Positions 47,473 through 64,000 of a stretch of 64,000 nt of DNA are shown in pieces. The position numbers and the translations under genes are program-made. The DNA lies in NCBI GenBank assembly GCA_013697955.1, contig JACCVV010000064.1, positions 3,076 through 67,075 of the forward strand. The letters are read 5' to 3'. The notes under the pieces were generated by a model. The model was given only the letters and a program-made list of their open reading frames with translations, was not told the origin of the DNA and did not search any database. This DNA comes from Tatlockia sp. (GTDB lineage: Bacteria > Pseudomonadota > Gammaproteobacteria > Legionellales > Legionellaceae). How positions within the stretch are numbered: the first letter of the stretch is position 1; each line of letters opens with the position of its first letter.

Positions 47473-48440
47473 CTTTGTAATCTCACATTGTAAAGTTCAT
47501 TTAACTTGCCTACATTCCCACCGTGCATAGACATTGCAGGTAATATTACTGACTCTGTTTCTACATTTTTTAATAAATATTGAAGAAAATTAGCCAACAT
47601 GCCATTTGGACTTAAATCCAGATATAAACAAGGCCCTTGTCTTTCTAATAATTGAATTGTCTCTTCGAAACGAACTGGTAGAGAGGCCACGTTCCAAAAA
47701 AAATCGGGATCGACCCTTGATACTTCGTTCACATAAGTTGATGAGATAATTGAACAACCCGGAGTAAAAAAACGAACAGAATCCATAAAGCCCTGATAAT
47801 TTTCTTTGATATCAGCTATCAGAGGTGAGTGAAAAGGGTAATGTATCGGAAGAATTTGCGATGTGATGGATAAGGGTATCAATTGAGATCGCAAATTATT
47901 AATTGCTTCTATTGTGCCTGAAACCACAAAATGACCTGGGAAGTTTATAGTGGCCAGAAAGCAATCTTCGAATAATTGAGGATAGTCATCCATCATCGCT
48001 ACTGAAGAAAGAATAACTAACATACCTCCGGTTTGACATTTTTGCTTAACAACTGACGCCTGAAAAGCCACTATAGTTGCTGCGTCTTCAACCGTCAGGG
48101 CGCCGGCTAAAGTAGAGGTAACCAACTCCCCTAAACTGTAGCCAAGTAAGCAGGCCGGATAAAGCCCTTTATCGATAAGGAGTGTAGCCAGACAATATTG
48201 CGTCAGGAAAATAGCGGGATGAGTATAACTAATATCTGAAAACTCAGCATAACAATCGATAGGAGAACGATAGAGAACAGCAGCTAAAGATTCGCCCATT
48301 ATTCGTTTAAAAATCTGATCATAGTAGTCGATTAATTGTTTAAATTTAGGCACATTTTGATAAAGTTCATGAAGCATGCCCGGGTATTGACAACCTTGTC
48401 CGCCTGCTAAAAAAACCAGCTTGTAATCGTTGATATTCAT
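47469..48440 (-). CDS. Free acyltransferase-like protein (FabD/PKS-AT fold) with atypical active-site motifs
   Basis: 323 aa. Motifs are FLAGGQGCQYPGM, GYSLGE (instead of GHSxGE) and YPFHS. Gln127 occupies the position 25 residues after the nucleophile Ser, where FabD and the PKS-A AT have Arg. ATGA overlaps at both ends. Confidence 0.85.
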   Translation of the reverse strand: MNINDYKLVFLAGGQGCQYPGMLHELYQNVPKFKQLIDYYDQIFKRIMGESLAAVLYRSPIDCYAEFSDISYTHPAIFLTQYCLATLLIDKGLYPACLLGYSLGELVTSTLAGALTVEDAATIVAFQASVVKQKCQTGGMLVILSSVAMMDDYPQLFEDCFLATINFPGHFVVSGTIEAINNLRSQLIPLSITSQILPIHYPFHSPLIADIKENYQGFMDSVRFFTPGCSIISSTYVNEVSRVDPDFFWNVASLPVRFEETIQLLERQGPCLYLDLSPNGMLANFLQYLLKNVETESVILPAMSMHGGNVGKLNELYNVRLQS

Positions 48441-51400
48441 ATTGTTTCTAATTCATCCATTGATAATTTTATCTGCTCGATAACCTGGCCAAAATCGCTA
48501 TCTAATAATAAAGAAAAATGATCGCTTTCTTGCTCAATAATTTCTATTTCTGGTAAGAATAATTCTTGCCAGCGCTTGCCATGATCTGACGCAGACAGCT
48601 GAATTTTTGGTAAATTCAAGGGATTGTCACTCCCTATCAAACCTTTATTTGCAGAAACCAATATTATTTTTACAGAAGGATTCAGATAAGGTTTGGCCTG
48701 ATAATTTTGTTCAGCTATAAGATGAGTATTGAGAATATATTCCATCTTGCTCAAGAGCGCTTCCAATTCATTATTTGATAAAGAAGTATATTGTAATAAG
48801 TGTTGAGTGACTATTTTTAGTGCTTTGTGCGGCGAAAATGTTAATAAATCATCTGAGGTTAAAAAGGATTCTCCATGCCAAAGCGTAGTTAATGCATTAG
48901 CTGTGATTAGCATGCGCAAGTTATAATTCGTTGCTTGATACGCTTCTTTTAGAATTTGAGATCCAGGGGCATAAGAATCCAGTAAAACAATATGTGAAAC
49001 CAGTTGCCCTTGTTCAAATAATTGTTGTGCGATTTCAAATGCGATGGTTCCACCAAATGAATATCCCCCCAAAATATAGGGTCCCTCAGGCTGAATATGG
49101 CGAATTTCCTCAATAAGCGTGTGAGCCATTTGCGGCACATTATTGATTGGTTCTTCATTTTTTTCCAAACCACGGGCTCTAAGACCATAGATAGGATAAT
49201 CCTCCCCAAAGCACTGAGCTAATCGATTCAGCCACGAGATGTTACCCGTAGAACCATGAATCCAAAAGCTTGCTTGTTGTAGCCCTGAGCGACGAAAAGG
49301 GACCAACAAGGATTGAGAAGCACTTTCAGTTGCCTGTGCTAAAGGAGCGCTTAGGGAGCGATTAAGAAGGAATCGGTCATGAAGAAACACAGCAAGTTCA
49401 TGTGCATTGGCATGTCTAAAAAAGAGTATGGGTTCCACACTAATTTGATAGTCAGTATCCAATTTTTTAGAGATAGTCGATGCATCAAGCGAATTTAATC
49501 CAAAGGCAAGAAAACTATCCGATAAATTAACTCGGTTTGTAGGTATGCGTAGAGTAGATTCAAAAACACGGCAAATAGCTTGTTGTAAATTCTCTATAGA
49601 CTTTATTATCAAACCGCCCTTTTCGGTTAAAGGTCTGAGGTACTTAGTCGAGGGTACTTCAGATTGTGATGTCGTAAGTAATTTATCAATTGCAAATAAT
49701 TTTTTCAGTTTTTCAAGATCGCCATAAAGCACTCCAACTGCGTGATATCCGGTAGAGAGTAAGCGTTGGAGTTGCTTAAAAGCCAGATTACCCTCTAGGA
49801 AATCAAATCCTAATTCACTAAGCTGAGCAGCTTTTGCTGGGGAGAGGTGATTGTCTTCAAACCACTGCGACCATAAAATACTATAACACTTACCTGATCG
49901 TTGCCCTTTTGAACTGAATTCATTTCGCCAATTGGCAAAACTATTTTGAAACGCGCAAGAAAATGCATAATCTGCACCTCCGCCTAATCCTGTGATCGAT
50001 GCAATCGAGGAGAATAGTAGAAAGAAATCTAGAGAGTCACTTTTTGTTAATTGATCTAAATGCCAGGTTCCCAATAATTTTGGTTCTATAACCCGGGAAA
50101 GAGACTGTATTGATTTTGTTTGGAGTAGGCCGTCTTCTACAACAGTAGCCATCTGAATAATGCCATGAACAGTCTTGATAGTCTTACGCATATCCGCCCA
50201 TTTTCTTGCCAGACTTCCATAGTGATTAATATCAGCGGAAATATAATGGATGCCTTTGCAATCTATACCAATGATTTCTGCCAACTCAGACTTAGATAAT
50301 TGACGTCGACCTATTAAAATAATAGTTGCATCGTAATCCTGAATTAAAATGCGAATTAATTGTTGACCTACTGAGCCTAATCCACCAGCTAACACATAGG
50401 TCCCTTTTTTTCTAAAACCAGGCGCTTGGGTTTCTTCTTTCCCCATTCCTGACTTAAGGGAATAAACCCCTTTAATCCTACGTTGGTTATTTTTATAAAG
50501 GACCTCACAATTTTCAAAGACATTGTCACGGCAGGTTGTTTCCTGTCTAATTATTCTGGCAACTTGCTCTACTGTTTCTCCCCCAGGACTAATACACAAG
50601 CTGCGACCAATAAATTGAGGATTTTCTTGCATATAGGATTTTAAGAATGCTCCTATCGCATGGTGATGCGCAGTGGATAAGCAATTGGCTTTTGGAGCAG
50701 AGGAAAACACATAAAATAGCATCAAAGATTCACCAGCTAATGCAGTAGCTTTTTGCAATAGCAATGTTAATGAATAAAGTCCTCGATTGAGCAACTGTTG
50801 CCAATCATCCTTGCACTTTAACTCTTTGCCTTCCTGAGGATTTAAGTAATGCAACAAATGAATAATCATTCTGATGGGTTGATTATAGGATGCCAACTGA
50901 CTCATTAAATCATCATAGTGATTCTCTTGTGCATCATTAAGCTCAATGAAATGTTCTGTCCGAATAGCAAATTGTTGTCCTGGGGTGATACAAACAAACT
51001 TACAGAGATTAAACGGGGTAGTCTGCTTAAGCTTGTCGATAAAACTTGTTGTATAAGCATCATCTTGTCCAATAATTAGGACTAAACCTGGCAAAATCCC
51101 AGCTTCCTGTGAAAAATCTTCTCTTGAATCGACCCAGTCATTATAAATTAATAAAGGTTCACCTGAAGGTTTGGCTTCTATTTGTGACGAATCAGAAGTA
51201 GTACTAATCCAATAGCGTTCCCTCGCAAAAGCGTAGGTTGGTAATGAAATAAAGCTCCCCGAATTGTCCCACTTGACTTTGCTACCTCTGGTCCATAGAT
51301 AGGCTATAAAATTATCGGGAACAGGAAGATCAGGAGCAGAATTAGGATCATAAAAAAAGCAACCCTCATTAAGATCTTCAACCGGGTTTTCGCAAAATTG

Positions 51401-53071
51401 CAACAACTTGGTGACTAATTCCTGTTTATCACTCACAACCAGTGCTAATCGTACATCCATTTCTTCGCGACCCTGTTGTAAAGTATAAGCAATATCATTC
51501 AAATTCAGTTCTTCAGCCGAATTTCCCTTTATAAAAACAGCTAATCGACGCGCATTTTCTTGTAATTGGGACAGGGTTTTTGCAGACAAAGGGATAGTCA
51601 AGGGTGCAACCCTTAAGGTATACGAATCAGGAATTTTATTTTTTGATAGATATTCTTCAATAATAATGAACGCATTGGAGCCGCCTGCGCCAAAGCCACT
51701 TAGACCCGCTCTTAATGGTTCAACCTCATTGCCTAACCTTAAAGGCTTCCAATCGGCAAAAGTTTGTTGAACTGTGAAGGGTAAATTAGTGAAGTCAAGA
51801 TCAGGATTTAAAGTATTTGAGTGTAAAGAGGGCACCAATTTTCGATGCTTGAGTTGTAATAACACTTTAGCCATAGCAGCAGTTCCTGCCGCAGCCTCGA
51901 GATGACCAATATTTGACTTCACGGAACCGAGAGAACAATGGTAATTAATAGCACCCATATCTGAGGCTTTAAAAACCTTCGCTAAACCTGCTAATTCAAT
52001 AGCATCACCTAATGGAGTGCCTGAGCCATGGGCTTCAATATAAGAGATGGATGACAAAGGTACTTTAGACTTTTTAAGAACAGAAGAGATTAAAGCCGCC
52101 TGAGCATCCGGGTTTGGCACTGTAAAGGCTTGAGCACGTCCGCCATGATTGAGGCCTGTTCCTTTGATAATACCATGAATTTGGTTACCGTCTTCTTTAG
52201 CTGCTTGTAATGATTTCAAGATGAAGACACCAACTCCTTCACCTGGCACATAGCCATCTCCGCCCTTGCCAAAACTACGGCAGCGACCATCGCTAGAAGC
52301 AAAATGAAATTGGCTAAGGGTAAGATATTTGTGGACATCCAAGGCTAAATTAACCCCTCCCACTACTGCAATTTCTGAGGAGCCCGATCGTATACTCTCA
52401 CAGGCTAAATGAAAGGCCGTTAACGTAGAAGAACACATAGTATCTAAAGCAAGTGAAGGCCCTGAAAAACCAAAAAACCAAGAAACCCGATTAGCAATAG
52501 AGGCAAAGGATGGATCGGGTAAAATAATTCTGTCCGCCGTGTTTTGCTGATATTCCAACAGATGATATTCACTCGACATAACACCAACAAATACGCCAGC
52601 TGGAATGCCAACACTATTTTGATATCTTTCGATAAGCTGGGAACGTGTGATCCCTGCATCTTCGAAGGCTTCCCATACAACCTCTAAAAACAAACGTTCT
52701 TGAGGATCCATGAAAAGCGCATTTCCAGGGGAAATATTAAAAAAAATGGGGTCAAATTGGTCAACTTCCGCTAAAAATCCGCCCCATTTTGCATAAGTTT
52801 TTCCAAGGGTATCTTGTTTTTTATCAAAATATTGCCTTAGATCCCAGCGCTCTTTGGGAATCTCAGTGATGCAATCCTTCGCGTTCTTTAAATTTTGCCA
52901 AAATTCCTCAAGATTTTCCGCCATGGGATATCGCCCCGCCATCCCAACTATTGCAATTTCTTCAACCTGACTTTCCTGTTTTACTTTTTGAGTCAAAAGA
53001 TCTAAAAGAAGTAACTTCTTTTCATGCAGACTCATTTTACTCAGATTCATTTTAAAACCCTTATCTGGCAC
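48437..53071 (-). CDS. Trans-AT type I polyketide synthase PKS-B, terminal module: KS-KR-ACP-TE
   Basis: 1544 aa. The apparent GTG start overlaps the PKS-A stop by 1 nt; an alternative ATG lies at codon 8. Motifs are listed in the sub-features. Confidence 0.95.
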   Translation of the reverse strand: MPDKGFKMNLSKMSLHEKKLLLLDLLTQKVKQESQVEEIAIVGMAGRYPMAENLEEFWQNLKNAKDCITEIPKERWDLRQYFDKKQDTLGKTYAKWGGFLAEVDQFDPIFFNISPGNALFMDPQERLFLEVVWEAFEDAGITRSQLIERYQNSVGIPAGVFVGVMSSEYHLLEYQQNTADRIILPDPSFASIANRVSWFFGFSGPSLALDTMCSSTLTAFHLACESIRSGSSEIAVVGGVNLALDVHKYLTLSQFHFASSDGRCRSFGKGGDGYVPGEGVGVFILKSLQAAKEDGNQIHGIIKGTGLNHGGRAQAFTVPNPDAQAALISSVLKKSKVPLSSISYIEAHGSGTPLGDAIELAGLAKVFKASDMGAINYHCSLGSVKSNIGHLEAAAGTAAMAKVLLQLKHRKLVPSLHSNTLNPDLDFTNLPFTVQQTFADWKPLRLGNEVEPLRAGLSGFGAGGSNAFIIIEEYLSKNKIPDSYTLRVAPLTIPLSAKTLSQLQENARRLAVFIKGNSAEELNLNDIAYTLQQGREEMDVRLALVVSDKQELVTKLLQFCENPVEDLNEGCFFYDPNSAPDLPVPDNFIAYLWTRGSKVKWDNSGSFISLPTYAFARERYWISTTSDSSQIEAKPSGEPLLIYNDWVDSREDFSQEAGILPGLVLIIGQDDAYTTSFIDKLKQTTPFNLCKFVCITPGQQFAIRTEHFIELNDAQENHYDDLMSQLASYNQPIRMIIHLLHYLNPQEGKELKCKDDWQQLLNRGLYSLTLLLQKATALAGESLMLFYVFSSAPKANCLSTAHHHAIGAFLKSYMQENPQFIGRSLCISPGGETVEQVARIIRQETTCRDNVFENCEVLYKNNQRRIKGVYSLKSGMGKEETQAPGFRKKGTYVLAGGLGSVGQQLIRILIQDYDATIILIGRRQLSKSELAEIIGIDCKGIHYISADINHYGSLARKWADMRKTIKTVHGIIQMATVVEDGLLQTKSIQSLSRVIEPKLLGTWHLDQLTKSDSLDFFLLFSSIASITGLGGGADYAFSCAFQNSFANWRNEFSSKGQRSGKCYSILWSQWFEDNHLSPAKAAQLSELGFDFLEGNLAFKQLQRLLSTGYHAVGVLYGDLEKLKKLFAIDKLLTTSQSEVPSTKYLRPLTEKGGLIIKSIENLQQAICRVFESTLRIPTNRVNLSDSFLAFGLNSLDASTISKKLDTDYQISVEPILFFRHANAHELAVFLHDRFLLNRSLSAPLAQATESASQSLLVPFRRSGLQQASFWIHGSTGNISWLNRLAQCFGEDYPIYGLRARGLEKNEEPINNVPQMAHTLIEEIRHIQPEGPYILGGYSFGGTIAFEIAQQLFEQGQLVSHIVLLDSYAPGSQILKEAYQATNYNLRMLITANALTTLWHGESFLTSDDLLTFSPHKALKIVTQHLLQYTSLSNNELEALLSKMEYILNTHLIAEQNYQAKPYLNPSVKIILVSANKGLIGSDNPLNLPKIQLSASDHGKRWQELFLPEIEIIEQESDHFSLLLDSDFGQVIEQIKLSMDELETI
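48452..49288 (-). other. PKS-B thioesterase domain
   Basis: aa ~1262-1540; GGYSFGG (Ser1338), LLDSY, ESDHFSLL (His1518). Confidence 0.85.
49367..49609 (-). other. PKS-B ACP
   Basis: aa ~1155-1235; FGLNSL with Ser1194. Confidence 0.8.
49847..50419 (-). other. PKS-B KR (B-type VED motif)
   Basis: aa ~885-1075; AGGLGSVG, VVEDG, GGADYAFSC (Tyr1035 present; the usual Asn is Cys). Confidence 0.75.
51677..52963 (-). other. PKS-B KS
   Basis: aa ~37-465; DTMCSST (C213), EAHGSGT (H348), NIGHLE (H400). Confidence 0.9.
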
Positions 53072-56000
53072 TAATCGGATAGCATCTCAATCAACCCATC
53101 AATCATCTCTTCTGATAAACTTTCGATTTGCTGACTAACTGGTAATTTTTTTACTAAATCAGATTCTTTTATTGTCATATCAACTGGTTGATTAAATTGA
53201 TTAACCGCTGGCGCATGGTTTTGCTGGAGGTAATTAGCTACTTTCCCAAGAGTATTGTGTTCGAATAATAGTGTTTTTGGTAAAGGACCCCAATTTTTTT
53301 GCAATTTTTCAACGAAGGAGAGGGCCAATACTGAATCTAGTCCAAATTTTTCCATAGGATCTGATAAGGATATTCTGTCTGCCGAAAGTTTAATCAAATC
53401 AGCTAAGGTAGATACTAAATAATTTTCCAGAACTTCTTCATGCTTATTTAACAAAATACCCTCTTCATTCTTCTCAGAATTCACCAATGAAGGCGCGGAA
53501 TAGATTTTTGTTTCATTCCCCATTAACCAGTTGCCCATGGGTTGTAAATCATTTGTGTAAACCACTACCGCCTGGGAATAGGGCTGCATCATTAAGGTTA
53601 ACAATGCTTTAAGGCCCTGCTCATCAGGTAATATATCCAGCCCGGCTTGCTGCATGTCGACTTGCAACTGCTTACTAAGAAGCATTTGACCCTCTTGCCA
53701 ATAAGGCCAATTAATCGCAATAGTATGGCCCTTTCTTTTTTTAGCCTGAACAAGTTCTGTTCTAATCCCTGCAAACTCATCAAGAAAACCATTTGCTGCT
53801 GCATAATCACACTGTCCCGGTATAGCTGCGATGGATGCCAGTGAGGAAAATAAAATAAAAAAATCAAGTGGCTCATCAGCCGTGGCCCGATCGATGTTTA
53901 GCGTACCCTTTATTTTAGGTGCCAAAACAGAATGAAAATCCTTTTGCGATTTATAGAGAAAGAAATTGTCAGCTAGTACTCCAGCCAGTTGGATAACTCC
54001 ATTTAAGGGTCCAAATCGTTTTTTAATTTCTATTATTGTTTTATGAAGTACCACACAATCATTAATATCCACACTAATGTAGTAAACTCGACCGCCGCCT
54101 TGCTCAATAGACAGAATAGACTCATACAATGAATGATTCATGGGAGTCCGGCCTAATATGATCAGGGTCGCTTGATATTCTTTTGATAAATAAGCAGAAA
54201 TTTTCTGCCCTATGCCACCTAAACCACCGGCTAGTAAATAAATTCCTTTTTTACGAAATGAGATGCTGTGTAATTGTTCTGTCGGCTGTTCAATAAGCCT
54301 ATATTGGCGTTGAAGTCGCTCGTTGCTTTCTGAATAATAAACTGCACCAGGCGGAGACTCTATAGCCATTTCTTTTTCTACTGTTCTTAGCAAGTCCCTG
54401 GATTGCTCGAGAAGAGTTGATGAAATCATAATCAACTTGCTTTTTAATTCAGGATGTTCAACAGTTAATACTTTTAGAAAACTGTTGGTTGATGAAGCGA
54501 TTAGCCTTCCCACATAGCTGTTATAAGGAGCTATAATCGCCAATTTGCAGCTCGCACGCCAAGTTGTTTTTAAAAAACTTTTTACTAATAAAAAAAGCTT
54601 TTCCATCTCAGCCATAATAGGTGAAGAGGCCTGCTCACTAAAAAATAGTTCCTGTTGTTGAAAGTCTCTGGACAATTGCCAATTATAGATAAGTGACTTA
54701 AGCGTCACCTTTTCCTTGAGCAAAGCATCGAACAATAAATCATAATCAGACTGGCACAACGGATTAATTGTAAATTGGCGGGGCCCAAATTGTGAGAATT
54801 TTTCGCCGGGTTCAACCACAATACCCTGTTGATAAGCGGGTTCTAGGTGATTAACAAAAAAGAGAGTGGCCTCATAATCAAGGCTTGTCATCTTCTGCTT
54901 ATTTTCAACTTCTGCTGAGTCCCACTGTGGCACAAAATAATATAGATGAGGGTTTTGAGTTACCGGGAAATGAAGAGCCTTTGCTATACCTTTGAAACTA
55001 ACACCATATAAAGAGGCATATAGATCGCCATTTTGGCCTAATATAAATAAATTCAATGTTATGAATTGGGTAGCTGCTGACTCTTTCTCGATTCTTCCAT
55101 AAATCTTATGTTCATCATCGAGCTTTTTATGCACAACCAGTTTTTCAATAGAAAATGGTAAATAATGGGTATCCTTAGTCTCACTTAGCAAGCAAGCAAC
55201 CAATTGAAATGCTCCTTCAATTAATTGACAGGGTAAGGTCGTATTTAATGAAAAAGGTAATCGGTTTATTTTAATATCAGAAATTATTTCATTGCGATTA
55301 TAGGAAATATTATCTAATACCTGAAACATCTTTCCCAATACTACTTTGTGCTGCTTTAACTGTTGATAAAATAGCTTCTGCGATAATTTTTTGTCACAGC
55401 GTTCTGAAATGGCCTGCACCGATTCTGTTAAATAATTAGCTGGGACGTTTTTTTGTTTGATAAAAACTGCCCGCGCATGCTGCTCAGCTTGTTGTGAGAA
55501 AAGTGTTATGACTATTGATTCTTGCTGTTGTGCCCGAGTCATTTGCAGGCGGCATGGCTCGGTATCGACTAAAAAGCTGCTTGCCAAGACAAACTCACTT
55601 AACTGCCAATGCTCTGCTTGCATTCCGCTAAAAGCGATTTGATAACTCATATCCAGTAAATAACTTCCAGGCAGTAATTTTTGATCATTAATGCTGTGCC
55701 CTAGCAAGATTGGATCATCAGGCTGATAATTTTTCCAAAAGGTTTCCAGACTATTTTCTATATTCTTCTGATCATAGAATTGAACTTGCTGCTGCTCTAC
55801 TTTATTGACCTGACCTGTATTTGCAGCCCTGTGCCAATGAGTCTCCTTAGCAAAAGAATAATGAGGAAGCGGTATGATTTTACCGCCTTGTCGGGAAAAT
55901 AATTCTTTAAAAGAGATATCCTTCCCGAGAAGATAATCATTGAGTATCTCTCTTGCTGCTGGTGAACCCGATGTTAACGCCGGTTGGGGGAGATCTCCGT

Positions 56001-59000
56001 TTTTAATAAAGTAATCAAGCTTTACCACTACATCAGAGACAGATAAAGCATAAAATCCAAGGCGCTTGTTAAAATGATTTTTACCAACTGCCAGTGTATA
56101 AGCAAGATCCGGCAGAGAGAGGCTTCTCAATTTTGACTGACAAAAATCCAGTATTTTTTTGCAATAATTAGACAAAGCAACTGTGGTTTTTGCAGATATT
56201 ACTATCAAGTACTCTTCTTGGTGAGGATAAACTGGCTGCTCAATGATAGGTGGCTCTTCCAATACAACATGAACATTTGTCCCACTTGCACCAAAAGAAT
56301 TGATAGCAGCACGGCGGGGACTGGGGCCAGCCTGTTTCCATTCCGTCGTGGCTGTTTCTACGTAAAATGGAGTCTGCTGTAAATTTAAATACTGATTTTC
56401 TTGTTGATAATGCAATGAGGCAAATAATTTTTTTTCTTTGAATGCGCATAGTATTTTAAGCAAACCACAAATACCTGATGCTGTCATTGTATGGCCGATA
56501 TTGGTTTTTACCGAACCAATTGCACAAACCTGGTTTTTGCTGACTGATTTTCTAAAGGTATTGGTTAAGGACTGTATTTCAATAGGATCACCTAATTTCG
56601 TCCCTGTACCATGGGCTTCGATATAGCTGATTGTTGCAGGATCAATAGCATATTGCTCATATACTTTTCTTTGAACTGCTGTTTGTGCAGCAGTCATAGG
56701 TGCTGCTATGCCATTGCTTTTCCCATCATGATTGATTGCACTGCCAAGCACGACTCCATAAATATGATTTTTATCACGTATGGCATCTTGTAAGGGTTTT
56801 AATACTACGCAACCTACAGCTTCACCCATGGCAATACCATCAGCATTATTGTCAAATGCTTTGCACTGACTGGGGGATAGCATTTTTGCCGCATCCAAAA
56901 CCAAATGTGATTTTGGTCCATAGAGTAGATAGATTCCTGCAGCGATTGCAGATTGACATTCTTTGCGCAAAATACTCTGACATGCCAGATGAAATGCTGT
57001 TAAGGAGGAGGAACACTCTGTATCCACTACCAGACTTGGTCCTCGCAAATTAAAACAATGCGAAATCCTGGCAGCTAACATCCCTGCCGCATTACCGGTT
57101 AAAAAGAAAGTCCCTGCCTCTTCCCTGTTAACCTGCAGAGGATCCAGATAATTACCGGCTTTAGCTCCAATGAAAACTCCAATTTCCTGAGTCTCAGATT
57201 GCGAGACTGTATACCCGGCATCTTCAAAAGCTTTCCAGGCCTCTTGCAACAAAAGTCTTTGTTGAGGATCCATATATTGAGCTTCAAGCGGCGACATATT
57301 AAAAAATTCAGCATCGAATTGGTCAATGTCATTGAGAAACCCACCCTCATAGGAGCGTTCTAGTTGCCAGTAATTCGGCCAGTCTTGTAGTGCTTGACGT
57401 TCAGGAGAAAGCGGTCTTATTGAGTCAACTTTGTTTAAAAGATTGTCACAAAATTTTTCTATATTTTCAGCGTCAGGAAATTGCCCGGAAATACCTACAA
57501 TTGCTATGTGATTAGACCTATCCACTCCGTTTTCTGGGTCTATACTCTGGTGACTTACAACAGATCTTTGCAATTGTTTGGGCACTGAAAAAATCGCTCG
57601 TATATCTTGTAAGCAAGTGTCCTCAGTTCCAACAATAACTTTTTTTTCCTGCCTAGGTTCGGGAGAAACAATAACCGGAATTTCTTTTTGAATCGTTTTT
57701 TTGCAAATAAATTCTGCTAAATCAGCTATTGTTTCGTATTCAAATAAATCCATTGGCTGTAGCTGAATCTTCAATTGAACATTAAGTTTATTGACCATCT
57801 CAATCAATGATATTGAATCAATCCCGAGTTCAGAAAATGCTTGAGCCTCATTAAGGTCTGAAATATCAACATATAATATAGATGCTACACAGGCGCTTAT
57901 AGTCCTTAACACCTCGGGTTTTGATAGGGATTCCGGAAAGAGTTTTTTGGAATCTACAGCATTTTTTTTCCCGACAATCACAGCTTGTGAGACACTATTT
58001 TCACTGTGGTCATAGGGGACGCCATGCAAGTTTGAAACCGTTAAATGGGCATCATCGAGTAATTTTTTCCAGTACAAACTATCAAATAAAGGAGAATGCT
58101 CGATTCTATCTTCTGGGTTGGTAAATTCCCACCAACCATCTAATAAACCAAAAGTCAAAGTCAAATAAAAACTGACAGCAGTAGCTTCATTGATAATAAG
58201 TTTAGAATTTGGCTCCAAAATATTATCAATAAATTTTAAGGTTTTTTTGATATCTTTTGCGACGTGTAAAACGTTGGTAGCCAAGATGGCATGAAAATAT
58301 TGTGGCAAAAAACCCTGCTCTTCAAAACAATTATTAATATCCAGTTTTTTAAACAGGATAAAAGGATATTGTTGAGTTAATCGTTGTCGACCATGATTTA
58401 AAAAGGCCTGTGAAACATCGGTGTAATAATATTCAACAAGACCTTTATGCATTGCTATTCGCGGCAATAGAGCGATTGAACTGGCCCCTGTTCCCGCACC
58501 CAATTCCAGGATACGGGTAACCACTCCTTTCTGGCTGTTTTCAAGCAGTATTTCATCTAATTCTTCAATCATCACTTGGTTTAGATAATGGGCAATCGGC
58601 GATTGTCCATATATTTTTTCCATAAAAGAAAAGGAATCGCCTTCAAAAAATAACTGGACGATTTCAATATCCCCTCTTAGTACCCCCAGGTATTGAGCAA
58701 ATATTTTTTGAATTAAAATGATGTGATTATCCAGATTTGGAAATTCTCTTTTAATTTTCCGAGTTAGATCGGTAATTAATTGGTCAAGCTCGTATGATGT
58801 TTGCTGAATAAATTTAGATGTTGGCTTAATTAGCGTCTCGTTAGAAAGCCATCCATTTTTAACCAGTAGAAAAATAACCGCAGAGAAATGTTTTTGGTAT
58901 TTATCCTTAATATTTAATTTTTCAGAGAGGACTTCAAGGCTATAGTTTTTATTAAAATCTTCCTCATCGAAGATATAGCGAATAAGCAATAGCTCTGCGA

Positions 59001-60186
59001 GTTGATTCAAATATTGCTGACTATCAATAGCCGCTTGCTTGTCCAGCACCTGGGGTGCTGATTTCTTTGACAAGAGATTCTGATTAAGTAGCGAAGGACT
59101 CTGATAAATAACTGTGCTGTCGATTGGACAATTAAGTGCCTCAATTTCTGACAGAGCCTCTTTAAGCAAATCAGTTTCCGAAATCTGCTCAAACCAGGAT
59201 GCACCAGTACGAATTATCTTTAAGTCGGGCCGAAGCGATGAAGATATTTTGCAGGTGTAGCCTGATAAAGTTTGACCAGGTCCTACTTCAACACAAATCC
59301 TAAGGTCATTCATGGAGCAAATAGTATTGATTCCAGCTTCAAATTGCACTGGTTTACAAAGATGTTCGCCCCAATACTCAGGAGCACTTAGTTGCTCTGC
59401 GGTTATCCACCTGCCGGTAATATTAGAAATATAAGGAATTGCTGGCGGACAAATAGGGATATTTCTTGCACTATCGACTAAATTCTTTGCAGCAGGTCGT
59501 AATAATTCCGAATGAAAAGGATGCGTTGTCCTTAACCGCTGACAAACTATTCCCTCACGCTCTAGCCTGGATCGTAAACGTTCAACAGATTCATGGGTAC
59601 CTGAAACAACAGTAAGATATTTTTCATTTACAGCAGATACCCAGATATCCTCGCCAAGCGAGCCAAGTTCATGGACATTTAAAGGTATGGCTAACATTGA
59701 ACCTGAAGGGAGTTTATCAATCGCAGCAGCCCTTACAGACACTAATTTTACAGCATCCTGAAATGATAAAACTCCAGACAAGCAGGCAGCAACATACTCA
59801 CCAATACTGTGACCAAGCATTGCATCCGGTCTAATGCCAAAGCTCATAAGTTGACGCGCGAGTGCATACTCAATGGCAAAACAGGCAGGCTGAGCTATCG
59901 TTGTGGCTTGGGCATTTAAGTCAGCCTGATTAGTGGTTCTTCCTAATAAAGCAAGCAAATCAACCGTTTCCCCGGTTTTTGAATCTACCTTATTTTTAGG
60001 AAGTTCTTCGGGGTACAAAAACTCAATCAAATCAATATTCAGATGCTTTTTAAAGGCCAAATTCGCACGACAGATCTCTTCCCAAAAAACACCATGCTGC
60101 TCATATAGTGTCCTAAAACTGCCTGGGTATTGATCTCCAACCCCGGGAAAAAGAAAAACGATTCCCGGTTTGCTCATCGGCAGCAT
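53071..60186 (-). CDS. Trans-AT type I polyketide synthase PKS-A: AT-cMT-ACP-KS-DH-KR-ACP
   Basis: 2371 aa with an ATG start at 60184-60186. It overlaps the upstream ACP gene by 13 nt. Motifs are listed in the sub-features. Confidence 0.95.
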   Translation of the reverse strand: MLPMSKPGIVFLFPGVGDQYPGSFRTLYEQHGVFWEEICRANLAFKKHLNIDLIEFLYPEELPKNKVDSKTGETVDLLALLGRTTNQADLNAQATTIAQPACFAIEYALARQLMSFGIRPDAMLGHSIGEYVAACLSGVLSFQDAVKLVSVRAAAIDKLPSGSMLAIPLNVHELGSLGEDIWVSAVNEKYLTVVSGTHESVERLRSRLEREGIVCQRLRTTHPFHSELLRPAAKNLVDSARNIPICPPAIPYISNITGRWITAEQLSAPEYWGEHLCKPVQFEAGINTICSMNDLRICVEVGPGQTLSGYTCKISSSLRPDLKIIRTGASWFEQISETDLLKEALSEIEALNCPIDSTVIYQSPSLLNQNLLSKKSAPQVLDKQAAIDSQQYLNQLAELLLIRYIFDEEDFNKNYSLEVLSEKLNIKDKYQKHFSAVIFLLVKNGWLSNETLIKPTSKFIQQTSYELDQLITDLTRKIKREFPNLDNHIILIQKIFAQYLGVLRGDIEIVQLFFEGDSFSFMEKIYGQSPIAHYLNQVMIEELDEILLENSQKGVVTRILELGAGTGASSIALLPRIAMHKGLVEYYYTDVSQAFLNHGRQRLTQQYPFILFKKLDINNCFEEQGFLPQYFHAILATNVLHVAKDIKKTLKFIDNILEPNSKLIINEATAVSFYLTLTFGLLDGWWEFTNPEDRIEHSPLFDSLYWKKLLDDAHLTVSNLHGVPYDHSENSVSQAVIVGKKNAVDSKKLFPESLSKPEVLRTISACVASILYVDISDLNEAQAFSELGIDSISLIEMVNKLNVQLKIQLQPMDLFEYETIADLAEFICKKTIQKEIPVIVSPEPRQEKKVIVGTEDTCLQDIRAIFSVPKQLQRSVVSHQSIDPENGVDRSNHIAIVGISGQFPDAENIEKFCDNLLNKVDSIRPLSPERQALQDWPNYWQLERSYEGGFLNDIDQFDAEFFNMSPLEAQYMDPQQRLLLQEAWKAFEDAGYTVSQSETQEIGVFIGAKAGNYLDPLQVNREEAGTFFLTGNAAGMLAARISHCFNLRGPSLVVDTECSSSLTAFHLACQSILRKECQSAIAAGIYLLYGPKSHLVLDAAKMLSPSQCKAFDNNADGIAMGEAVGCVVLKPLQDAIRDKNHIYGVVLGSAINHDGKSNGIAAPMTAAQTAVQRKVYEQYAIDPATISYIEAHGTGTKLGDPIEIQSLTNTFRKSVSKNQVCAIGSVKTNIGHTMTASGICGLLKILCAFKEKKLFASLHYQQENQYLNLQQTPFYVETATTEWKQAGPSPRRAAINSFGASGTNVHVVLEEPPIIEQPVYPHQEEYLIVISAKTTVALSNYCKKILDFCQSKLRSLSLPDLAYTLAVGKNHFNKRLGFYALSVSDVVVKLDYFIKNGDLPQPALTSGSPAAREILNDYLLGKDISFKELFSRQGGKIIPLPHYSFAKETHWHRAANTGQVNKVEQQQVQFYDQKNIENSLETFWKNYQPDDPILLGHSINDQKLLPGSYLLDMSYQIAFSGMQAEHWQLSEFVLASSFLVDTEPCRLQMTRAQQQESIVITLFSQQAEQHARAVFIKQKNVPANYLTESVQAISERCDKKLSQKLFYQQLKQHKVVLGKMFQVLDNISYNRNEIISDIKINRLPFSLNTTLPCQLIEGAFQLVACLLSETKDTHYLPFSIEKLVVHKKLDDEHKIYGRIEKESAATQFITLNLFILGQNGDLYASLYGVSFKGIAKALHFPVTQNPHLYYFVPQWDSAEVENKQKMTSLDYEATLFFVNHLEPAYQQGIVVEPGEKFSQFGPRQFTINPLCQSDYDLLFDALLKEKVTLKSLIYNWQLSRDFQQQELFFSEQASSPIMAEMEKLFLLVKSFLKTTWRASCKLAIIAPYNSYVGRLIASSTNSFLKVLTVEHPELKSKLIMISSTLLEQSRDLLRTVEKEMAIESPPGAVYYSESNERLQRQYRLIEQPTEQLHSISFRKKGIYLLAGGLGGIGQKISAYLSKEYQATLIILGRTPMNHSLYESILSIEQGGGRVYYISVDINDCVVLHKTIIEIKKRFGPLNGVIQLAGVLADNFFLYKSQKDFHSVLAPKIKGTLNIDRATADEPLDFFILFSSLASIAAIPGQCDYAAANGFLDEFAGIRTELVQAKKRKGHTIAINWPYWQEGQMLLSKQLQVDMQQAGLDILPDEQGLKALLTLMMQPYSQAVVVYTNDLQPMGNWLMGNETKIYSAPSLVNSEKNEEGILLNKHEEVLENYLVSTLADLIKLSADRISLSDPMEKFGLDSVLALSFVEKLQKNWGPLPKTLLFEHNTLGKVANYLQQNHAPAVNQFNQPVDMTIKESDLVKKLPVSQQIESLSEEMIDGLIEMLSD
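53212..53445 (-). other. PKS-A ACP2 followed by a helical tail
   Basis: aa ~2248-2325; FGLDSV with Ser2285. The tail is SLSEEMIDGLIEMLSD. Confidence 0.85.
53692..54264 (-). other. PKS-A KR (B-type LAD motif)
   Basis: aa ~1975-2165; motifs AGGLGGIG, VLADN, GQCDYAAAN. Confidence 0.85.
54967..55749 (-). other. PKS-A DH (variant second motif)
   Basis: aa ~1480-1740; H1497 in HSINDQKLLP. The DxxxQ position reads IEGAFQ, with Glu1657 instead of Asp. Confidence 0.7.
56251..57510 (-). other. PKS-A KS
   Basis: aa ~893-1312; DTECSSS (C1058), EAHGTGT (H1192), NIGHT (H1232). Confidence 0.9.
57697..57924 (-). other. PKS-A ACP1
   Basis: aa ~755-830; LGIDSI with Ser791. Confidence 0.85.
57967..59034 (-). 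other. PKS-A C-methyltransferase domain
   Basis: aa ~385-740; motifs ILELGAGTGAS, TNVLHVA, LLDGWWEFTNPEDRIEHSPLF. Confidence 0.85.
59227..60168 (-). other. PKS-A N-terminal acyltransferase domain (canonical)
   Basis: aa ~7-320; FLFPGVGDQYPG, GHSIGE (Ser127), Arg152 at the FabD Arg117-equivalent position, HPFHS. Confidence 0.85.
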
Positions 60187-60443
60187 TCCTCAGACTGGGC
60201 CATAGTGTATTCAGTTTTTTTAGCAAGAAAGGCACAGATATTGTGGATCGTATTAAAATTGCTGACTTTTAAATCTTCGTTTTCAAATCTAATGCTAAAC
60301 TGTTTCTCAAGAAAATTTACAATTTGAAGTGCAAAAAGTGAGTTTACAAAGCCGAGCTGAAATATATCACTCTGAGCATCAAGATATTCTACATTGAGAT
60401 GCTTGCACAAAAAATTACGAACCGGTTCTTCGATATGCTTCAT
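60174..60443 (-). CDS. Discrete acyl carrier protein (FkbJ/ZmaD-like position)
   Basis: 89 aa. LGFVNSLFALQIVNFLE carries the candidate phosphopantetheinyl Ser. It sits between the FkbH-like gene and PKS-A with overlapping ends. Confidence 0.8.
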   Translation of the reverse strand: MKHIEEPVRNFLCKHLNVEYLDAQSDIFQLGFVNSLFALQIVNFLEKQFSIRFENEDLKVSNFNTIHNICAFLAKKTEYTMAQSEECCR

Positions 60444-61474
60444 AAAAGGGTACTCTTAATCTTAATATAAGCAGGAATATTCAAAGGATTCTCCATGTTA
60501 CACTCCAAAAGAAAGTTAATATTGTCCGAATGAATTTCTTCAAATCCATTGAATTTATAGGTGATATACATCTGACGATTAACATCGTTTGAAATAAATT
60601 TAGCTTGCAACTTAAGAGAGGCTTTAGAGGCAAGTTGATGTATAAATGCGATTAAGGTGTTCACAATATTGCGCGACATGACTCGACAAGACACCAGCAA
60701 TAAATTTATCACCCAGGCTTCAGCAGTTTTCTCAATCAAAGTTAAACCAATGGTACCGTAAGACCCATATTTATCCTCTAAAGAGCAAGATAGGACCTCG
60801 TGTTTTTCAGAATGCATATAATGATGTAACTCATCATAGGTGTAAGTAATTCCCGTTGTATTTAATTGATTTGTGCGAATAGTTAGTTCCTCAGCACGTT
60901 TTAAGTCATCTTCTGAAATGCGATTGATTGACAGTTGTAAATTCAACTCTTTAAGAAAATCAATATTAGACCCAAAGGATTGCTCAGCCTGCTTCCGTAC
61001 TTCATCAATTTGATAATATTTTCTTCTTTGCGCTGATTCCGCAGTAATAAATCGGGGAATACAGGCTTGGTTGTTAGGGAATTCTAAAGCCTCTTCGGGG
61101 GTAAAAGTCATGACGGTAGGATGTTTTGATTTTACTTCATCCAATTCGAATATTTGATCATCTACAAAAGCGATGGAATCCACAGCAATATTGATATTTC
61201 TAGCAATATTCTCAATAGAAATTGATTTATCATTCCAGTTAATTTCGGGATAAATAAAATAGTCCCATAACCCCAGTTCAATTAGTTTTTTTTCAGCTAA
61301 AACATAATCATTCCTACTTGCAATAGAATGAAGAATTCCGCGATTATCCAGTGTTTTTATGACCTGAACGAGATTTAGATTGAGATAAACAGGCGTATTT
61401 TCCAGAAGCACCCCATCCCAAATAGTATTATCCAAATCCCATATAATACATTTGATTTTATTAATCTTGTCCAT
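60440..61474 (-). CDS. FkbH-like HAD-superfamily phosphatase / glyceryl-ACP-forming enzyme
   Basis: 344 aa. It has HAD motif I (IWDLDNTIWDG) and a C-terminal LLLVSCRVMSRN, which matches the conserved SCRV Cys motif of FkbH/OzmB-type enzymes. Confidence 0.85.
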   Translation of the reverse strand: MDKINKIKCIIWDLDNTIWDGVLLENTPVYLNLNLVQVIKTLDNRGILHSIASRNDYVLAEKKLIELGLWDYFIYPEINWNDKSISIENIARNINIAVDSIAFVDDQIFELDEVKSKHPTVMTFTPEEALEFPNNQACIPRFITAESAQRRKYYQIDEVRKQAEQSFGSNIDFLKELNLQLSINRISEDDLKRAEELTIRTNQLNTTGITYTYDELHHYMHSEKHEVLSCSLEDKYGSYGTIGLTLIEKTAEAWVINLLLVSCRVMSRNIVNTLIAFIHQLASKASLKLQAKFISNDVNRQMYITYKFNGFEEIHSDNINFLLECNMENPLNIPAYIKIKSTLL

Positions 61475-62622
61475 TATTCATAATTTCCTAAAAAACTTTT
61501 CCCGATAAGAAGACGCATAATTTCATTAGAGCCTTCAATTAACTCACATACTTTTGCATCGTGTATAAAACGTCTTATCGGAGAATTTTCGTGATAGCCT
61601 TCTGCACCATAAATTTGTAGGGTGTCGTTGGCTGTTTGAGAGGCAAGTCTTGCACTGACATACTTTGCAATCATCACATCCTCTAGGGCATCTAGAAAAT
61701 TTTGTTCCATTTTAGTGCCTGCATTTTTACAGAGCAAACTGACAATCTTTCGATTCGCGAGCATATCTGAAATCATTGCGCTAATTAATTGAAAATCAAT
61801 GAGCCTGGATCCATCCGGACGGCTTCGCTGTACTTTTTTTTGAACAAGAGAAATGCAGGCATCAATAATGCCCAAGCAGCCACAGGAAACACTATAGCGA
61901 CCTAAGGTTAACGAACGTGTTGCAACAAAACTGAGGCCAATACCGGGCGAACCAATAAATTGTTCTTCTTTAACCAAAACGTCATCAAAACATATTTCTG
62001 CAAGCATTGAAGCCGATTTTCCCAATGCATTTTGAATGGGTTTGATACTGATATTTGGCGAATCCGTTGGCACCAGAATAGCAACAGGATGTTCACCGTT
62101 TAACTTTGCAAAAACTAACAATACATCAGCAACTTGTCCAAAAGACACCCATACTTTGTTGCCTCTCAAATAATAGTCAGATTTTTTTATCAGAATAGTT
62201 TGAATTTTATCAATACTAGAACCCAGATCAGGCTCTGTTAATGCAAATGCAGCAATAATTTTGCCCGCGGCCAACTGTGGCAACCAGGCTCGTTTTTGAC
62301 TTTCATTACCAAAGCCCTGGATCGCCTCAGCAACCATGTCATGAACTGTCAACAAGGATCGTATAGAAGAACAAGCCTTCCCTACCATCCTGGTTAATTT
62401 TCCATAACTCGTATAACTTAGACCCAAACCTCCATACTCCTTATTGATCAACGTCCCAAGCATGTCCTGAGAGGCTATTTTTATAATCAAGTCCAATGGG
62501 AGTTTAGCTTCCAGGGCAAACTGGTTTGCAAAAGGTGCTATTTGTTCTTGAACAAATCTATGCGAGGCTCTAAGAAAGCTGGATTCATCTACTGTTTGAT
62601 CAATTTCATCACATCCTCTCAT
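61474..62622 (-). CDS. Acyl-CoA/acyl-ACP dehydrogenase (FkbI/ZmaE-like position)
   Basis: 382 aa. The ACAD fold is recognisable (AFALTEPDLGSS, YGAEGYHENSPIRRFIHDAKVCELIEGSNEI). Confidence 0.85.
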   Translation of the reverse strand: MRGCDEIDQTVDESSFLRASHRFVQEQIAPFANQFALEAKLPLDLIIKIASQDMLGTLINKEYGGLGLSYTSYGKLTRMVGKACSSIRSLLTVHDMVAEAIQGFGNESQKRAWLPQLAAGKIIAAFALTEPDLGSSIDKIQTILIKKSDYYLRGNKVWVSFGQVADVLLVFAKLNGEHPVAILVPTDSPNISIKPIQNALGKSASMLAEICFDDVLVKEEQFIGSPGIGLSFVATRSLTLGRYSVSCGCLGIIDACISLVQKKVQRSRPDGSRLIDFQLISAMISDMLANRKIVSLLCKNAGTKMEQNFLDALEDVMIAKYVSARLASQTANDTLQIYGAEGYHENSPIRRFIHDAKVCELIEGSNEIMRLLIGKSFLGNYE

Positions 62623-63460
62623 ATTGGTATAATCCTATTCCTGTTTTGCGACCAAACTGACCTTGTTCAACTAAATCGACCAATAATTTAGCTGGCATAT
62701 ACATTTCTTGTTGAAATTCGGAATAAAGTACATTGAGAGAATGAAGAACCGTATCTAAGCCAATCAAATCAGCAGTCATTAAAGGCCCCATTTTATGACC
62801 TAAACATTTAACAAATAATTCATCAATGTGAGCGGCCGTTTGACATAGATTCTCCTCAAAAACCTTGATCGCTTCATTGAGGGTAACCATAAAAACTCTA
62901 TTAATAACAAAACCAGTTTTATCCTCGACTATAACTCCGGACTTTCCCAGTGAAGATAACATTTCACGAGCTCTATCCAAGGTTTCTTGAGAGGTCAAAT
63001 TGGTTCTGATTATTTCGACAAAAGATTTGATGGGGGCAGGGTTCATAAAATGAATCCCTAACATTCGATGAGGGTAATCTATAAAAGGAGTTAAGGATTT
63101 AATTGAAATACAAGATGTATTGATTACAACCAGACAATCGGGCTTGATAATTATTTTTAATTGGCTAAGTAGAGAGCTTTTTAATTCGAAAGATTCGGTC
63201 GTATTGTCAATGAGATAATCACAGCACGCTAACTCACTAATGTCCTGGCTCTTGTGAATAAGTTTTTTTAATTCATCAAGCTTCTTTTTGGGATTGCCAA
63301 AAAAACATTGCGTTTTATAGCTTTGCTCGAGTAATTCGTCAACTTTATTCAATACACTTTGCTGATTATCAATCAATATTACATTATAGTTATGTTCTGC
63401 AAAAACATAGGCAACGCCAATACCCATTGTACCCGCACCAAAAATTCCCACCGTTTTCAA
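62609..63460 (-). CDS. 3-hydroxyacyl-CoA/ACP dehydrogenase, NAD-binding (FkbK/ZmaG-like position)
   Basis: 283 aa. N-terminal Rossmann motif VGIFGAGTMGIGVA, with the 3HCDH-type core (GIHFMNPAP, GFVINR). Confidence 0.85.
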   Translation of the reverse strand: MKTVGIFGAGTMGIGVAYVFAEHNYNVILIDNQQSVLNKVDELLEQSYKTQCFFGNPKKKLDELKKLIHKSQDISELACCDYLIDNTTESFELKSSLLSQLKIIIKPDCLVVINTSCISIKSLTPFIDYPHRMLGIHFMNPAPIKSFVEIIRTNLTSQETLDRAREMLSSLGKSGVIVEDKTGFVINRVFMVTLNEAIKVFEENLCQTAAHIDELFVKCLGHKMGPLMTADLIGLDTVLHSLNVLYSEFQQEMYMPAKLLVDLVEQGQFGRKTGIGLYQYERM

Positions 63461-63504: not shown

Positions 63505-64000
63505 TCAGGAACAAATTATACTTTTATTCAACCAATCTGCGGTTGCATACATCAATTTCTCGGCTATCTTATCGACATGACGGTTGCGCCAATTCTCCAG
63601 GGAAGAGCCCTTAACCCACTGATTGAAAGCTCCGAGCGCTGGTCCTGTATGGATTTGATAATTAACTCGTTGCTGTTTATCCCCTTTCAAAGCTAAGCGC
63701 ATTGAGTGAATAAAATACCATCTGAAAACAAGCGCCATTTTTTGTTTATCATTTTTTTCTGCTCTCTCTATTTCCTGAGGAGAGCTCTGTAGGTAGTAAT
63801 TTTTAGTTTCTGAATAAACCTCTTCGAAGCTTCGTCCAAAATAGGTTGTTTCTATCTGCTGGCGAAGTGTTTCATCGATATCTTCCCATCGGCTATAGTT
63901 GCGCCATAATTCATATAATTTATTAGCACGTGTTGGAAAAAAAACTCCTTTTTTCATAACTTGAACTTTTGCACCTATTTCAAACATATCACCAGCAGGT
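63505..64000 (-). CDS. PfaD-family trans-acting enoylreductase (C-terminal part; gene continues beyond the window)
   Basis: The frame stays open to the edge (..PAGDMFEIGAKVQVMKKGVFFPTRANKLYELW...MALVFRWYF...GPALGAFNQWVKGS). This matches the conserved C-terminal half of PfaD/PksE-type FMN oxidoreductases. Confidence 0.85.
   Translation of the reverse strand, partial: PAGDMFEIGAKVQVMKKGVFFPTRANKLYELWRNYSRWEDIDETLRQQIETTYFGRSFEEVYSETKNYYLQSSPQEIERAEKNDKQKMALVFRWYFIHSMRLALKGDKQQRVNYQIHTGPALGAFNQWVKGSSLENWRNRHVDKIAEKLMYATADWLNKSIICS

Follow-up and report, generated by a model that had tools for sequence, protein, structure and literature searches.

Glycolate-type extender units introduce oxygen at the alpha carbon of a polyketide and are in demand for engineering; the described pathways closest to the one considered here are those of zwittermicin A, of FK520 and ansamitocin, and of oxazolomycin. 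We compared with them a 64,000-nt stretch of DNA from Tatlockia sp. (Legionellaceae; assembly GCA_013697955.1, contig JACCVV010000064.1, positions 3,076 to 67,075), referred to below as the window, in which a four-gene cassette lies next to the genes of a polyketide synthase (PKS) line that is otherwise without acyltransferase (AT) domains. We consider it probable that the cassette makes hydroxymalonyl-acyl carrier protein (ACP), that an AT domain at the N-terminus of the adjoining subunit, PKS1, loads this unit onto a module split across two proteins, i.e. a ketosynthase (KS) on one and AT-C-methyltransferase (C-MT)-ACP on the other, and that the unit enters with a free hydroxyl group.

The zwittermicin A pathway has the same four enzyme types (ZmaN, ZmaD, ZmaG and ZmaE) and is likewise without an O-methyltransferase (O-MT). 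ZmaA is a contiguous KS-AT-ketoreductase (KR)-ACP module in a hybrid of a cis-AT PKS and a nonribosomal peptide synthetase (NRPS). PMC4207774 names only an AT and a KR2 domain for this protein. ZmaA-AT is an in-line domain that recognizes an ACP-bound unit, as we propose for the AT of PKS1, and the RXR site is uncharged in both. Unlike ZmaA-AT, however, the PKS1 AT belongs to a line that has no other in-line AT, and it stands at a protein N-terminus, apart from its KS and with a C-MT next to it.

Equivalents of FkbH, FkbI, FkbJ and FkbK, as encoded by fkbG-K (FK520) and asm13-17 (ansamitocin), are all present in the window, but those gene sets serve cis-AT PKSs and include an FkbG/Asm17-type O-MT, which the window lacks. 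The oxazolomycin system (OzmB/D/E/F/G with OzmC) resembles this locus in that a glycolate-type, ACP-linked extender enters an AT-less line and needs an AT of its own; to go by architecture, in that system the AT (OzmC) is free-standing and the unit is O-methylated by OzmF, whereas at this locus the AT is part of a PKS protein and a comparable methyltransferase (MT) is lacking. OzmC, KirCII and ZmaF are the few confirmed non-malonyl trans-ATs, and for glycolate-type units in trans-AT systems the same review lists only OzmC, which is free-standing and uses methoxymalonyl (PMC6164871). Within Legionella, a glycerate-derived hydroxymalonate has already been speculated upon for legionellol (PMC5640695).

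A cassette predicted to make hydroxymalonyl-ACP

An earlier note on this DNA had described an overlapping, co-directional FkbH/FkbI/FkbJ/FkbK-type set at 60174-63460. The open reading frame (ORF) list of the window bears this out exactly, and the family matches and motifs agree with it:

62609-63460, reverse strand: FkbK/ZmaG-like 3-hydroxyacyl-CoA-dehydrogenase homologue, 283 aa (PF02737 (3HCDH_N) 1.2e-42; PF00725 (3HCDH) 3.4e-25)
61474-62622, reverse strand: FkbI/ZmaE-like acyl-CoA-dehydrogenase (ACAD) homologue, 382 aa (three ACAD Pfam domains, 4e-27, 3.5e-24 and 2.8e-17)
60440-61474, reverse strand: FkbH/ZmaN/OzmB-family haloacid dehalogenase (HAD) enzyme, 344 aa (TIGR01686)
60174-60443, reverse strand: discrete carrier protein (ACP), FkbJ/ZmaD-like, 89 aa, with Ser35 (PF00550 (PP-binding) 1.1e-5)

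From each gene to the next the overlaps are 14, 1 and 4 nt, and the last gene, that of the ACP, shares 13 nt with the start of PKS1. A sister contig of 99.9% identity (L001; GCA_020063875.1, JAITZF010000564.1), whose genes had been called separately, has the same four products; it is 15.8 kb long and differs from the window by 3 single-nucleotide polymorphisms over 13.5 kb. In that contig PKS1 appears as two products (1385 and 985 aa); we considered a frameshift and rejected it, as the split is an artefact of a 10-N run at window position 56092.

The HAD enzyme scored 252.7 bits against TIGR01686 (curated cutoff 146.65) over residues 7-312, which places it in the FkbH family, and several sources label its homologues, of which 4151 were found, as FkbH-like. 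It carries both the DxDxT motif (D13-L-D15-N-T17) and the SCRV motif (S262-C263-R264-V265), and D13, D15, T17, S53, K83, D105, D106 and S262-C263-R264 are each kept in at least 97% of 120 homologues. The Cys of the C-terminal S-C-R motif is, according to work on OzmB, the acyl-enzyme residue. One relative, at 73% identity, sits on a 3-kb contig binned as Bacteroidetes. Ser35 of the ACP lies in a G-x-V-N-S-L-F-A motif that is common to the cassette ACPs of 10 other loci, and FkbI itself (1R2J) was the second-best PDB match of the ACAD homologue (9.6e-49). FkbH, a discrete ACP, a 3-hydroxyacyl dehydrogenase and an ACAD homologue, i.e. the gene set for hydroxymalonyl-ACP, are thus encoded together. 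As judged from these matches, the cassette is of the ZmaN/D/G/E and FkbH/I/J/K kind, which is already known and of which this locus adds a further predicted example.

Homologues of FkbK, FkbI, FkbH and FkbJ (K, I, H and J below) occurred together in eight other loci (L003, L005-L010 and L012), which come from Cyanosarcina, Xanthomonas pisi, Chitinophaga, the Bacillus cereus group, Trinickia and three metagenomic contigs. The 3-hydroxyacyl-dehydrogenase homologues (35-65% identity) were found in 8 of 10 independent FkbH loci, the ACAD homologue accompanied FkbH in 8 loci, and across the eight complete loci the identities of K, I, H and J rise and fall together. There are two gene orders, K-I-H-J in this locus and its closest relatives and K-J-I-H elsewhere. 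The Bacillus cereus group locus (L010) is an NRPS locus with K-ACP-I-H and a discrete AT; it was not identified as the zwittermicin cluster.

The Pfam families of the two dehydrogenases are those of beta-oxidation enzymes, so both could be imagined as ordinary fatty-acid beta-oxidation enzymes with an HAD phosphatase as a chance neighbour. We give this explanation next to no credence. None of the 53 NCBIfam models matched by the two homologues was reached at its curated cutoff: the best beta-oxidation equivalog for the 3-hydroxyacyl-CoA-dehydrogenase homologue gave 235.5 bits (cutoff 408) and the best NCBIfam equivalog for the ACAD homologue 195.1 bits (cutoff 640). In addition, the dehydrogenase genes overlap in series with the FkbH, ACP and PKS genes, the four-gene set was found again in unrelated taxa, and the window contains neither a thiolase nor a crotonase. 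On these grounds, and on the curated FkbH model, the conserved residues and the gene context, we agree with the earlier note in assigning the genes to extender-unit supply.

The N-terminal acyltransferase of PKS1

PKS domain orders were read from Pfam scans of overlapping 520-aa pieces. Two proteins of the window could be considered as the transferase for the cassette unit, and a third gene bears on the choice:

53071-60186, reverse strand: PKS1, AT-C-MT-ACP-KS-dehydratase (DH)-KR-ACP
59167-60186, reverse strand: PKS1 N-terminal AT domain, aa 1-340 (PF00698 9.5e-36)
47469-48440, reverse strand: free AT-like protein, 323 aa (PksD 8AVZ, 2.7e-56)
63505-64000, reverse strand: 3' part of a PfaD-family trans-acting enoylreductase (ER) gene, cut by the window end (TIGR02814 4.5e-75, model positions 284-443)

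Inside the PKS proteins the AT of PKS1 was the only AT-family match, and the window has no other true in-line AT. Its best PDB match was ZmaA-AT (4QBU, 2.5e-48), which in zwittermicin synthase is specific for hydroxymalonyl-ACP. The PKS1 AT keeps the malonate-binding Arg (VSVRAAA) and is therefore expected to bind a carboxyacyl unit; it further has GHSIGE and, at the YASH position, HPFH. At the RXR position, five residues before YASH, it reads V-C-Q, i.e. it has no positive charge, as in ATs that take ACP-linked units: ZmaA has M-C-M and ZmaF I-A-I at this position, whereas CoA-dependent ATs carry Arg or Lys (PMC4207774).

A homologue search over 5.8 billion proteins linked this AT to the cassette. 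The five closest homologues (P0121-P0125) were 48-60% identical, and all have GHSIGE and HPFHS. Genomic contexts were read for four of them (the fifth being P0124), and all four are ATs of single-module KS-AT-ACP-sulfotransferase PKSs. Three of the four (L007-L009) adjoin a K-I-H-J cassette and a fatty acyl-AMP ligase (FAAL)-ACP; the contig of the fourth (L011, a Legionella sp. metagenome-assembled genome; about 60-64% identical) is cut upstream of the PKS. A cassette is also present beside a Trinickia AT that is 44% identical to that of PKS1 (L012). AT clade and cassette therefore co-occurred in 4/4 other loci with readable context (L007-L009 and L012), whereas a malonyl-type control AT from Tolypothrix (39% identical; HAFH, I-E-C-R) had no cassette. 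Identities of L007-L009 to this locus were 55-65% for K, 61-67% for I, 60-64% for H, 50-55% for J and 49-58% for the AT. As these are single-extension systems, their cassettes can only feed their own AT.

These small clusters supply the closest relatives of all five parts, in the same K-I-H-J order, but they are single-module cis-AT systems with sulfate-activation genes, whereas the window holds a nine-KS trans-AT line. The KS does not follow the AT: we considered whether the two had been recruited together, and rejected this, since identity to the KSs of the related loci is about 40% for the last KS of PKS4 and for every other KS of the line alike. By these comparisons it is the AT, and not the KS, that is predicted to share a history with the cassette. 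For the complete AT-C-MT-ACP N-terminus, no protein above 29% identity over the full length was present among the homologues returned.

We conclude that the N-terminal AT of PKS1 is most likely a dedicated hydroxymalonyl-ACP transferase, a role for which the earlier note, which had overlooked this domain, had suspected the "atypical free AT". We rejected the free AT-like protein as the transferase for the cassette unit. Among PDB structures the acyl hydrolase PksD (8AVZ) matched it best, and at the equivalent of FabD Arg117 it has a Gln (VAFQASV) that aligns with Gln124 of PksD; the lack of Arg at this position (usually replaced by Gln or His) is diagnostic of acyl hydrolases (PMC11775670). 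Its GYSLG motif compares with G(A/S/V)SL in the PksD logo. With PksD as best match and the Arg-to-Gln change, hydrolysis is predicted, and the protein is, on this evidence, a presumptive proofreading acyl hydrolase of the PksD/PedC type and not an extender-unit transferase, which matters for product prediction.

GHSIGE, the kept Arg and HPFH do resemble malonyl-specific motifs and, the free protein being hydrolase-type, no other functional AT is seen in the window. The PKS1 AT might for these reasons be the cluster's malonyl-CoA AT for all modules, with the cassette product delivered from outside the window or left unused. We think this very unlikely, because the AT clade travels with the cassette in all four readable loci and the malonyl-type control does not, and because the RXR carrier site has no positive charge. 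A malonyl AT could also be encoded elsewhere: PksE/DisD-type proteins have an AT-ER architecture (PMC11775670), with the malonyl AT at the N-terminus of the ER protein, and in the ER gene upstream of the cassette this end would lie beyond the window. That gene is 44 nt upstream of the cassette; in the sister contig it extends to 410 aa and is still ER only.

Several of the clusters related through this AT (L007, L008, L009, L011 and L012, i.e. Legionella-like metagenomic contigs and Trinickia) form a type of their own, which combines the K-I-H-J cassette, FAAL-ACP and KS-AT-ACP-sulfotransferase and in some loci adds sulfate-activation genes (for 3'-phosphoadenosine 5'-phosphosulfate), an Asn synthase, an amidohydrolase and a glutathione S-transferase. 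The type appears to be uncharacterized, and its predicted product would be a fatty acyl chain with one hydroxymalonate extension, possibly sulfated.

Hydroxymalonyl or methoxymalonyl

Whether the unit is O-methylated depends on the MTs available to it. All 24 window ORFs of at least 150 aa were scanned against Pfam, and the candidates lie in or beside the following features:

57994-59049, reverse strand: PKS1 C-MT domain, aa ~380-731 (PDB matches DisA, CurJ and AprA MT2)
36430-47472, reverse strand: PKS3, ACP-MT-KS-KR-ACP-KS-MT-ACP-KS-DH-ACP
20309-21967, reverse strand: alpha/beta hydrolase::class-I MT fusion, directly after PKS4
1575-2591, forward strand: COMT-type O-MT with dimerisation domain, between two MatE genes (PF00891 1.2e-42)

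None of the 24 ORFs matched PF01596 (FkbG type) or PF05050 (FkbM type), so that the five-gene set of methoxymalonyl pathways is incomplete in the window. PF01596 was also absent from the gene tables of five related loci, and the 739 nt by which the sister contig extends beyond the window end are all trans-ER. The observation in the earlier note that no FkbG-type O-MT is in view thus holds, the COMT-type (PF00891) gene being 58 kb away from the cassette and not part of the operon, and so does its suggestion that, with no such MT in attendance, the unit may be hydroxymalonyl-ACP.

The same note had also suggested that an in-line MT might methylate the unit, and this now looks unlikely. The MT next to the PKS1 AT matched the C-MTs of DisA (6CCA, 5.4e-48), CurJ (7.6e-38) and PksCT as well as AprA MT2 (8.9e-37), and there were no O-MT structures among its PDB matches. 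It also has the His/Glu pair of C-MT domains (NVLH...NE, 26 residues apart), a dyad that in CurJ is His280/Glu306. The only O-MT-type domain in the line is the second MT of PKS3 (6HP1 1.2e-40; StiD/StiE ~2e-37). It stands between a KS in which the first catalytic His is missing (EVQAVGH in place of EAHGTGT) and an ACP (~39673-42500, reverse strand); this KS-O-MT-ACP unit is a predicted non-elongating module, which would O-methylate the beta-hydroxyl made just before. In the inferred order of the line it stands five KS-ACP modules upstream of the AT-C-MT-ACP module. Because there is no FkbG-type MT, the PKS1 MT is a C-MT and the PKS3 O-MT would act earlier, hydroxymalonyl is the best call, and the unit is most likely hydroxymalonyl and not methoxymalonyl.

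Methoxymalonyl would still result if the fusion MT, the COMT-type enzyme or an FkbG encoded outside the window O-methylated either the ACP-bound unit or the finished polyketide. The fusion is encoded in the same operon, directly after PKS4, but its MT half gave only generic UbiE/BioC-like matches, all far below cutoff. The PF00891 gene encodes an O-MT (1.2e-42) and has MatE genes on either side, but it lies 58 kb off on the opposite strand, with housekeeping-like genes in between. Some 10 kb of the contig lie outside the window, and cyanobacterial AT homologues are fused to FkbM-type MTs, with FkbH homologues apparently on the same contig, so that solutions other than FkbG may exist; in the window, however, there is neither PF01596 nor PF05050, and the five related loci with gene tables are also without FkbG. 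We consider O-methylation by any of these routes unlikely, if less so than the malonyl-CoA explanation above, and retain hydroxymalonyl as the unit.

Among the AT homologues, Nostoc P0230 is an AT-ACP-FkbM-type MT fusion, and the FkbH homologue P0065 is also on a 457,339-bp contig, which we took to be the same one; Chloroflexota P0206 is a 472-aa AT-only homologue, with P0076 likewise on a 93,440-bp contig. The Nostoc pair may point to a route to methoxymalonyl units in which the O-methylating domain is fused.

Probable order of the line and the proposed pathway

From the cut trans-ER gene down to 20309 all genes are on the reverse strand, with overlaps or gaps of at most 79 nt. The G+C content of the DNA, about 38%, is compatible with Legionellales but is no proof of such an origin. 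In addition to PKS1, PKS3 and the genes given above, the line comprises:

57706-57903, reverse strand: PKS1 first ACP, Ser791 (PF00550 3.1e-17, GIDS motif)
48437-53071, reverse strand: PKS2, KS-KR-ACP-thioesterase (TE)
21984-36368, reverse strand: PKS4, KS-DH-KR-MT-ACP-KS-ACP-KS-DH-KR-ACP-KS-linker-end
23025-24143, reverse strand: PKS4 last KS, aa 4076-4448 (Pfam KS_N and KS_C)

We inferred the subunit order PKS3, PKS4, PKS1, PKS2 from domain logic. PKS2, with its terminal TE, would come last; the final domain of PKS1 is an ACP, and translational coupling joins PKS1 to PKS2; PKS3 likewise finishes with an ACP, and PKS4 opens with a KS. The earlier note had placed the cassette at the head of the PKS genes, which is correct on the gene map but not in the biosynthetic sense, as the adjoining PKS1 probably acts as subunit three of four.

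The last KS of PKS4 has its complete set of catalytic residues (Cys4244, His4380 and His4420) and is followed only by linker families and the protein end, without an ACP. Such a linker remnant, typical of AT-less (trans-AT) synthases, is all that follows each KS except the KS before PKS1's AT. Conversely, tailoring domains and an ACP, with no KS, are found at the start of PKS1 and of no other protein. We therefore propose that the two ends complement each other as a split module, i.e. PKS4 last KS / PKS1 AT-C-MT-ACP.

By homology, the FkbH-family enzyme would dephosphorylate the glyceryl unit from 1,3-bisphosphoglycerate and load it onto the Ser35-phosphopantetheine of the discrete ACP; the 3-hydroxyacyl-dehydrogenase homologue would turn C3 of glyceryl-ACP to the aldehyde; and the FAD-dependent ACAD homologue would convert the aldehyde to the carboxylate, giving hydroxymalonyl-ACP. 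The association of AT and cassette, together with the AT motifs, suggests that the N-terminal AT of PKS1 would then move the hydroxymalonyl group to the first ACP of PKS1 (Ser791), which would serve the last KS of PKS4 with its complete Cys-His-His triad. The unit would enter with a free 2-hydroxy group, and its C-methylation, the least certain step, might give a 2-hydroxy-2-methyl-3-oxo unit. The remaining modules have no AT and would depend on one acting in trans, presumably encoded outside the window.

Several points weigh against this pathway and against the role that it gives to the PKS1 AT. First, the lead of ZmaA-AT over CoA-dependent ATs among the PDB matches is only ~8 bits, and the acyl-pocket motifs are malonyl-like: PKS1 AT has GHSIGE in place of the GYSxG found in ZmaA-AT and ZmaF (GYSFG in ZmaA), and HPFH where ZmaA has GAAH. 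According to PMC11775670, the Phe in xFHS keeps out alpha-substituted units, but GPFH is present in ZmaF, whose substrate is aminomalonyl-ACP; GYSxG, too, is not universal, the FK520 methoxymalonyl ATs being described only by the residue after the Ser (PMC4207774). Second, ~10 kb of the 74,199-bp source contig lie outside the window, where an FkbG homologue or another AT could be encoded, and within it the COMT-type O-MT (1575-2591) and the hydrolase::MT fusion (20309-21967) could O-methylate at a later stage. Third, a search of the literature, of incomplete coverage, found no precedent for a PKS C-MT that acts on a 2-hydroxy-3-oxoacyl intermediate, and we know of none ourselves.

Glycerate-type starter loading modules are found in systems of the phormidolide, oocydin and bryostatin type. 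A further explanation is accordingly that the N-terminal ACP of PKS3 receives from the FkbH enzyme and the cassette ACP a starter derived from glycerate, and that the PKS1 AT is unrelated to the cassette. PKS3 opens with ACP-MT before its first KS and has no visible loading enzyme, and FkbH domains serve starters in trans-AT systems such as oocydin (PMC4552970). However, FkbH and ACP alone would suffice for a starter, whereas both oxidising enzymes overlap with them here and are kept as a set in 8 loci; the discrete ACP requires a transferase, and the only candidate is encoded alongside and belongs to the cassette-linked clade. In the closest relatives, moreover, which are single-extension systems, the starter comes from FAAL, so that the cassette there feeds the extender only. 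We judge a starter role to be improbable, on a par with the malonyl-CoA explanation, and prefer supply of hydroxymalonyl to the split module.

The N-terminus of PKS3 (46063-47472, reverse strand) has an ACP and then a C-MT-type MT ahead of the first KS; PDB matches of this MT were DisA (1e-60) and AprA MT2 (2.4e-52), and no loading enzyme is visible for the ACP.

Implications for extender-unit supply in trans-AT systems

The cassette itself is of a known kind, and the less ordinary part of the locus is the wiring, i.e. one in-line AT, linked to the cassette, that opens a protein of an otherwise AT-less line as part of a proposed split module with a C-MT. Our search of the literature, again incomplete in coverage, returned no trans-AT line with an in-line glycolate-specific AT and no C-methylated unit derived from hydroxymalonyl. 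If the proposed pathway is true, it would be a second solution to the supply of glycolate-type units in trans-AT systems, in the form of a portable package of four cassette genes and one AT domain that acts at a single module. The related ATs (44-64% identity) would also provide a set in which carrier-protein recognition, rather than the acyl pocket, could be studied as the basis of specificity.

We can go further only tentatively. One possible but doubtful history is that a hydroxymalonyl-ACP AT and its K-I-H-J cassette left a single-module cis-AT synthase and were grafted onto the N-terminus of a trans-AT subunit, the resulting split module installing a C-methylated glycolate, i.e. a tertiary 2-hydroxy-2-methyl-3-oxo centre. 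To our knowledge, no polyketide line described so far combines a grafted hydroxymalonyl-AT split module with a C-methylated glycolate unit.

Neighbouring genes

The hydrolase::MT fusion is followed by one further gene of potential relevance:

19153-20229, reverse strand: FolD

In one of the small related clusters (L008), genes for S-adenosylmethionine (SAM) synthetase and S-adenosylhomocysteine hydrolase adjoin the cassette. Together with FolD here, this suggests that these clusters may include genes for one-carbon and SAM supply. Further along, 12920-16342 (reverse strand) encodes a 1140-aa protein with DUF5710 at its N-terminus and a superfamily-1 helicase (AAA_11/AAA_12) at its C-terminus, flanked by ORFs without family matches; this gene likely marks the end of the biosynthetic region.

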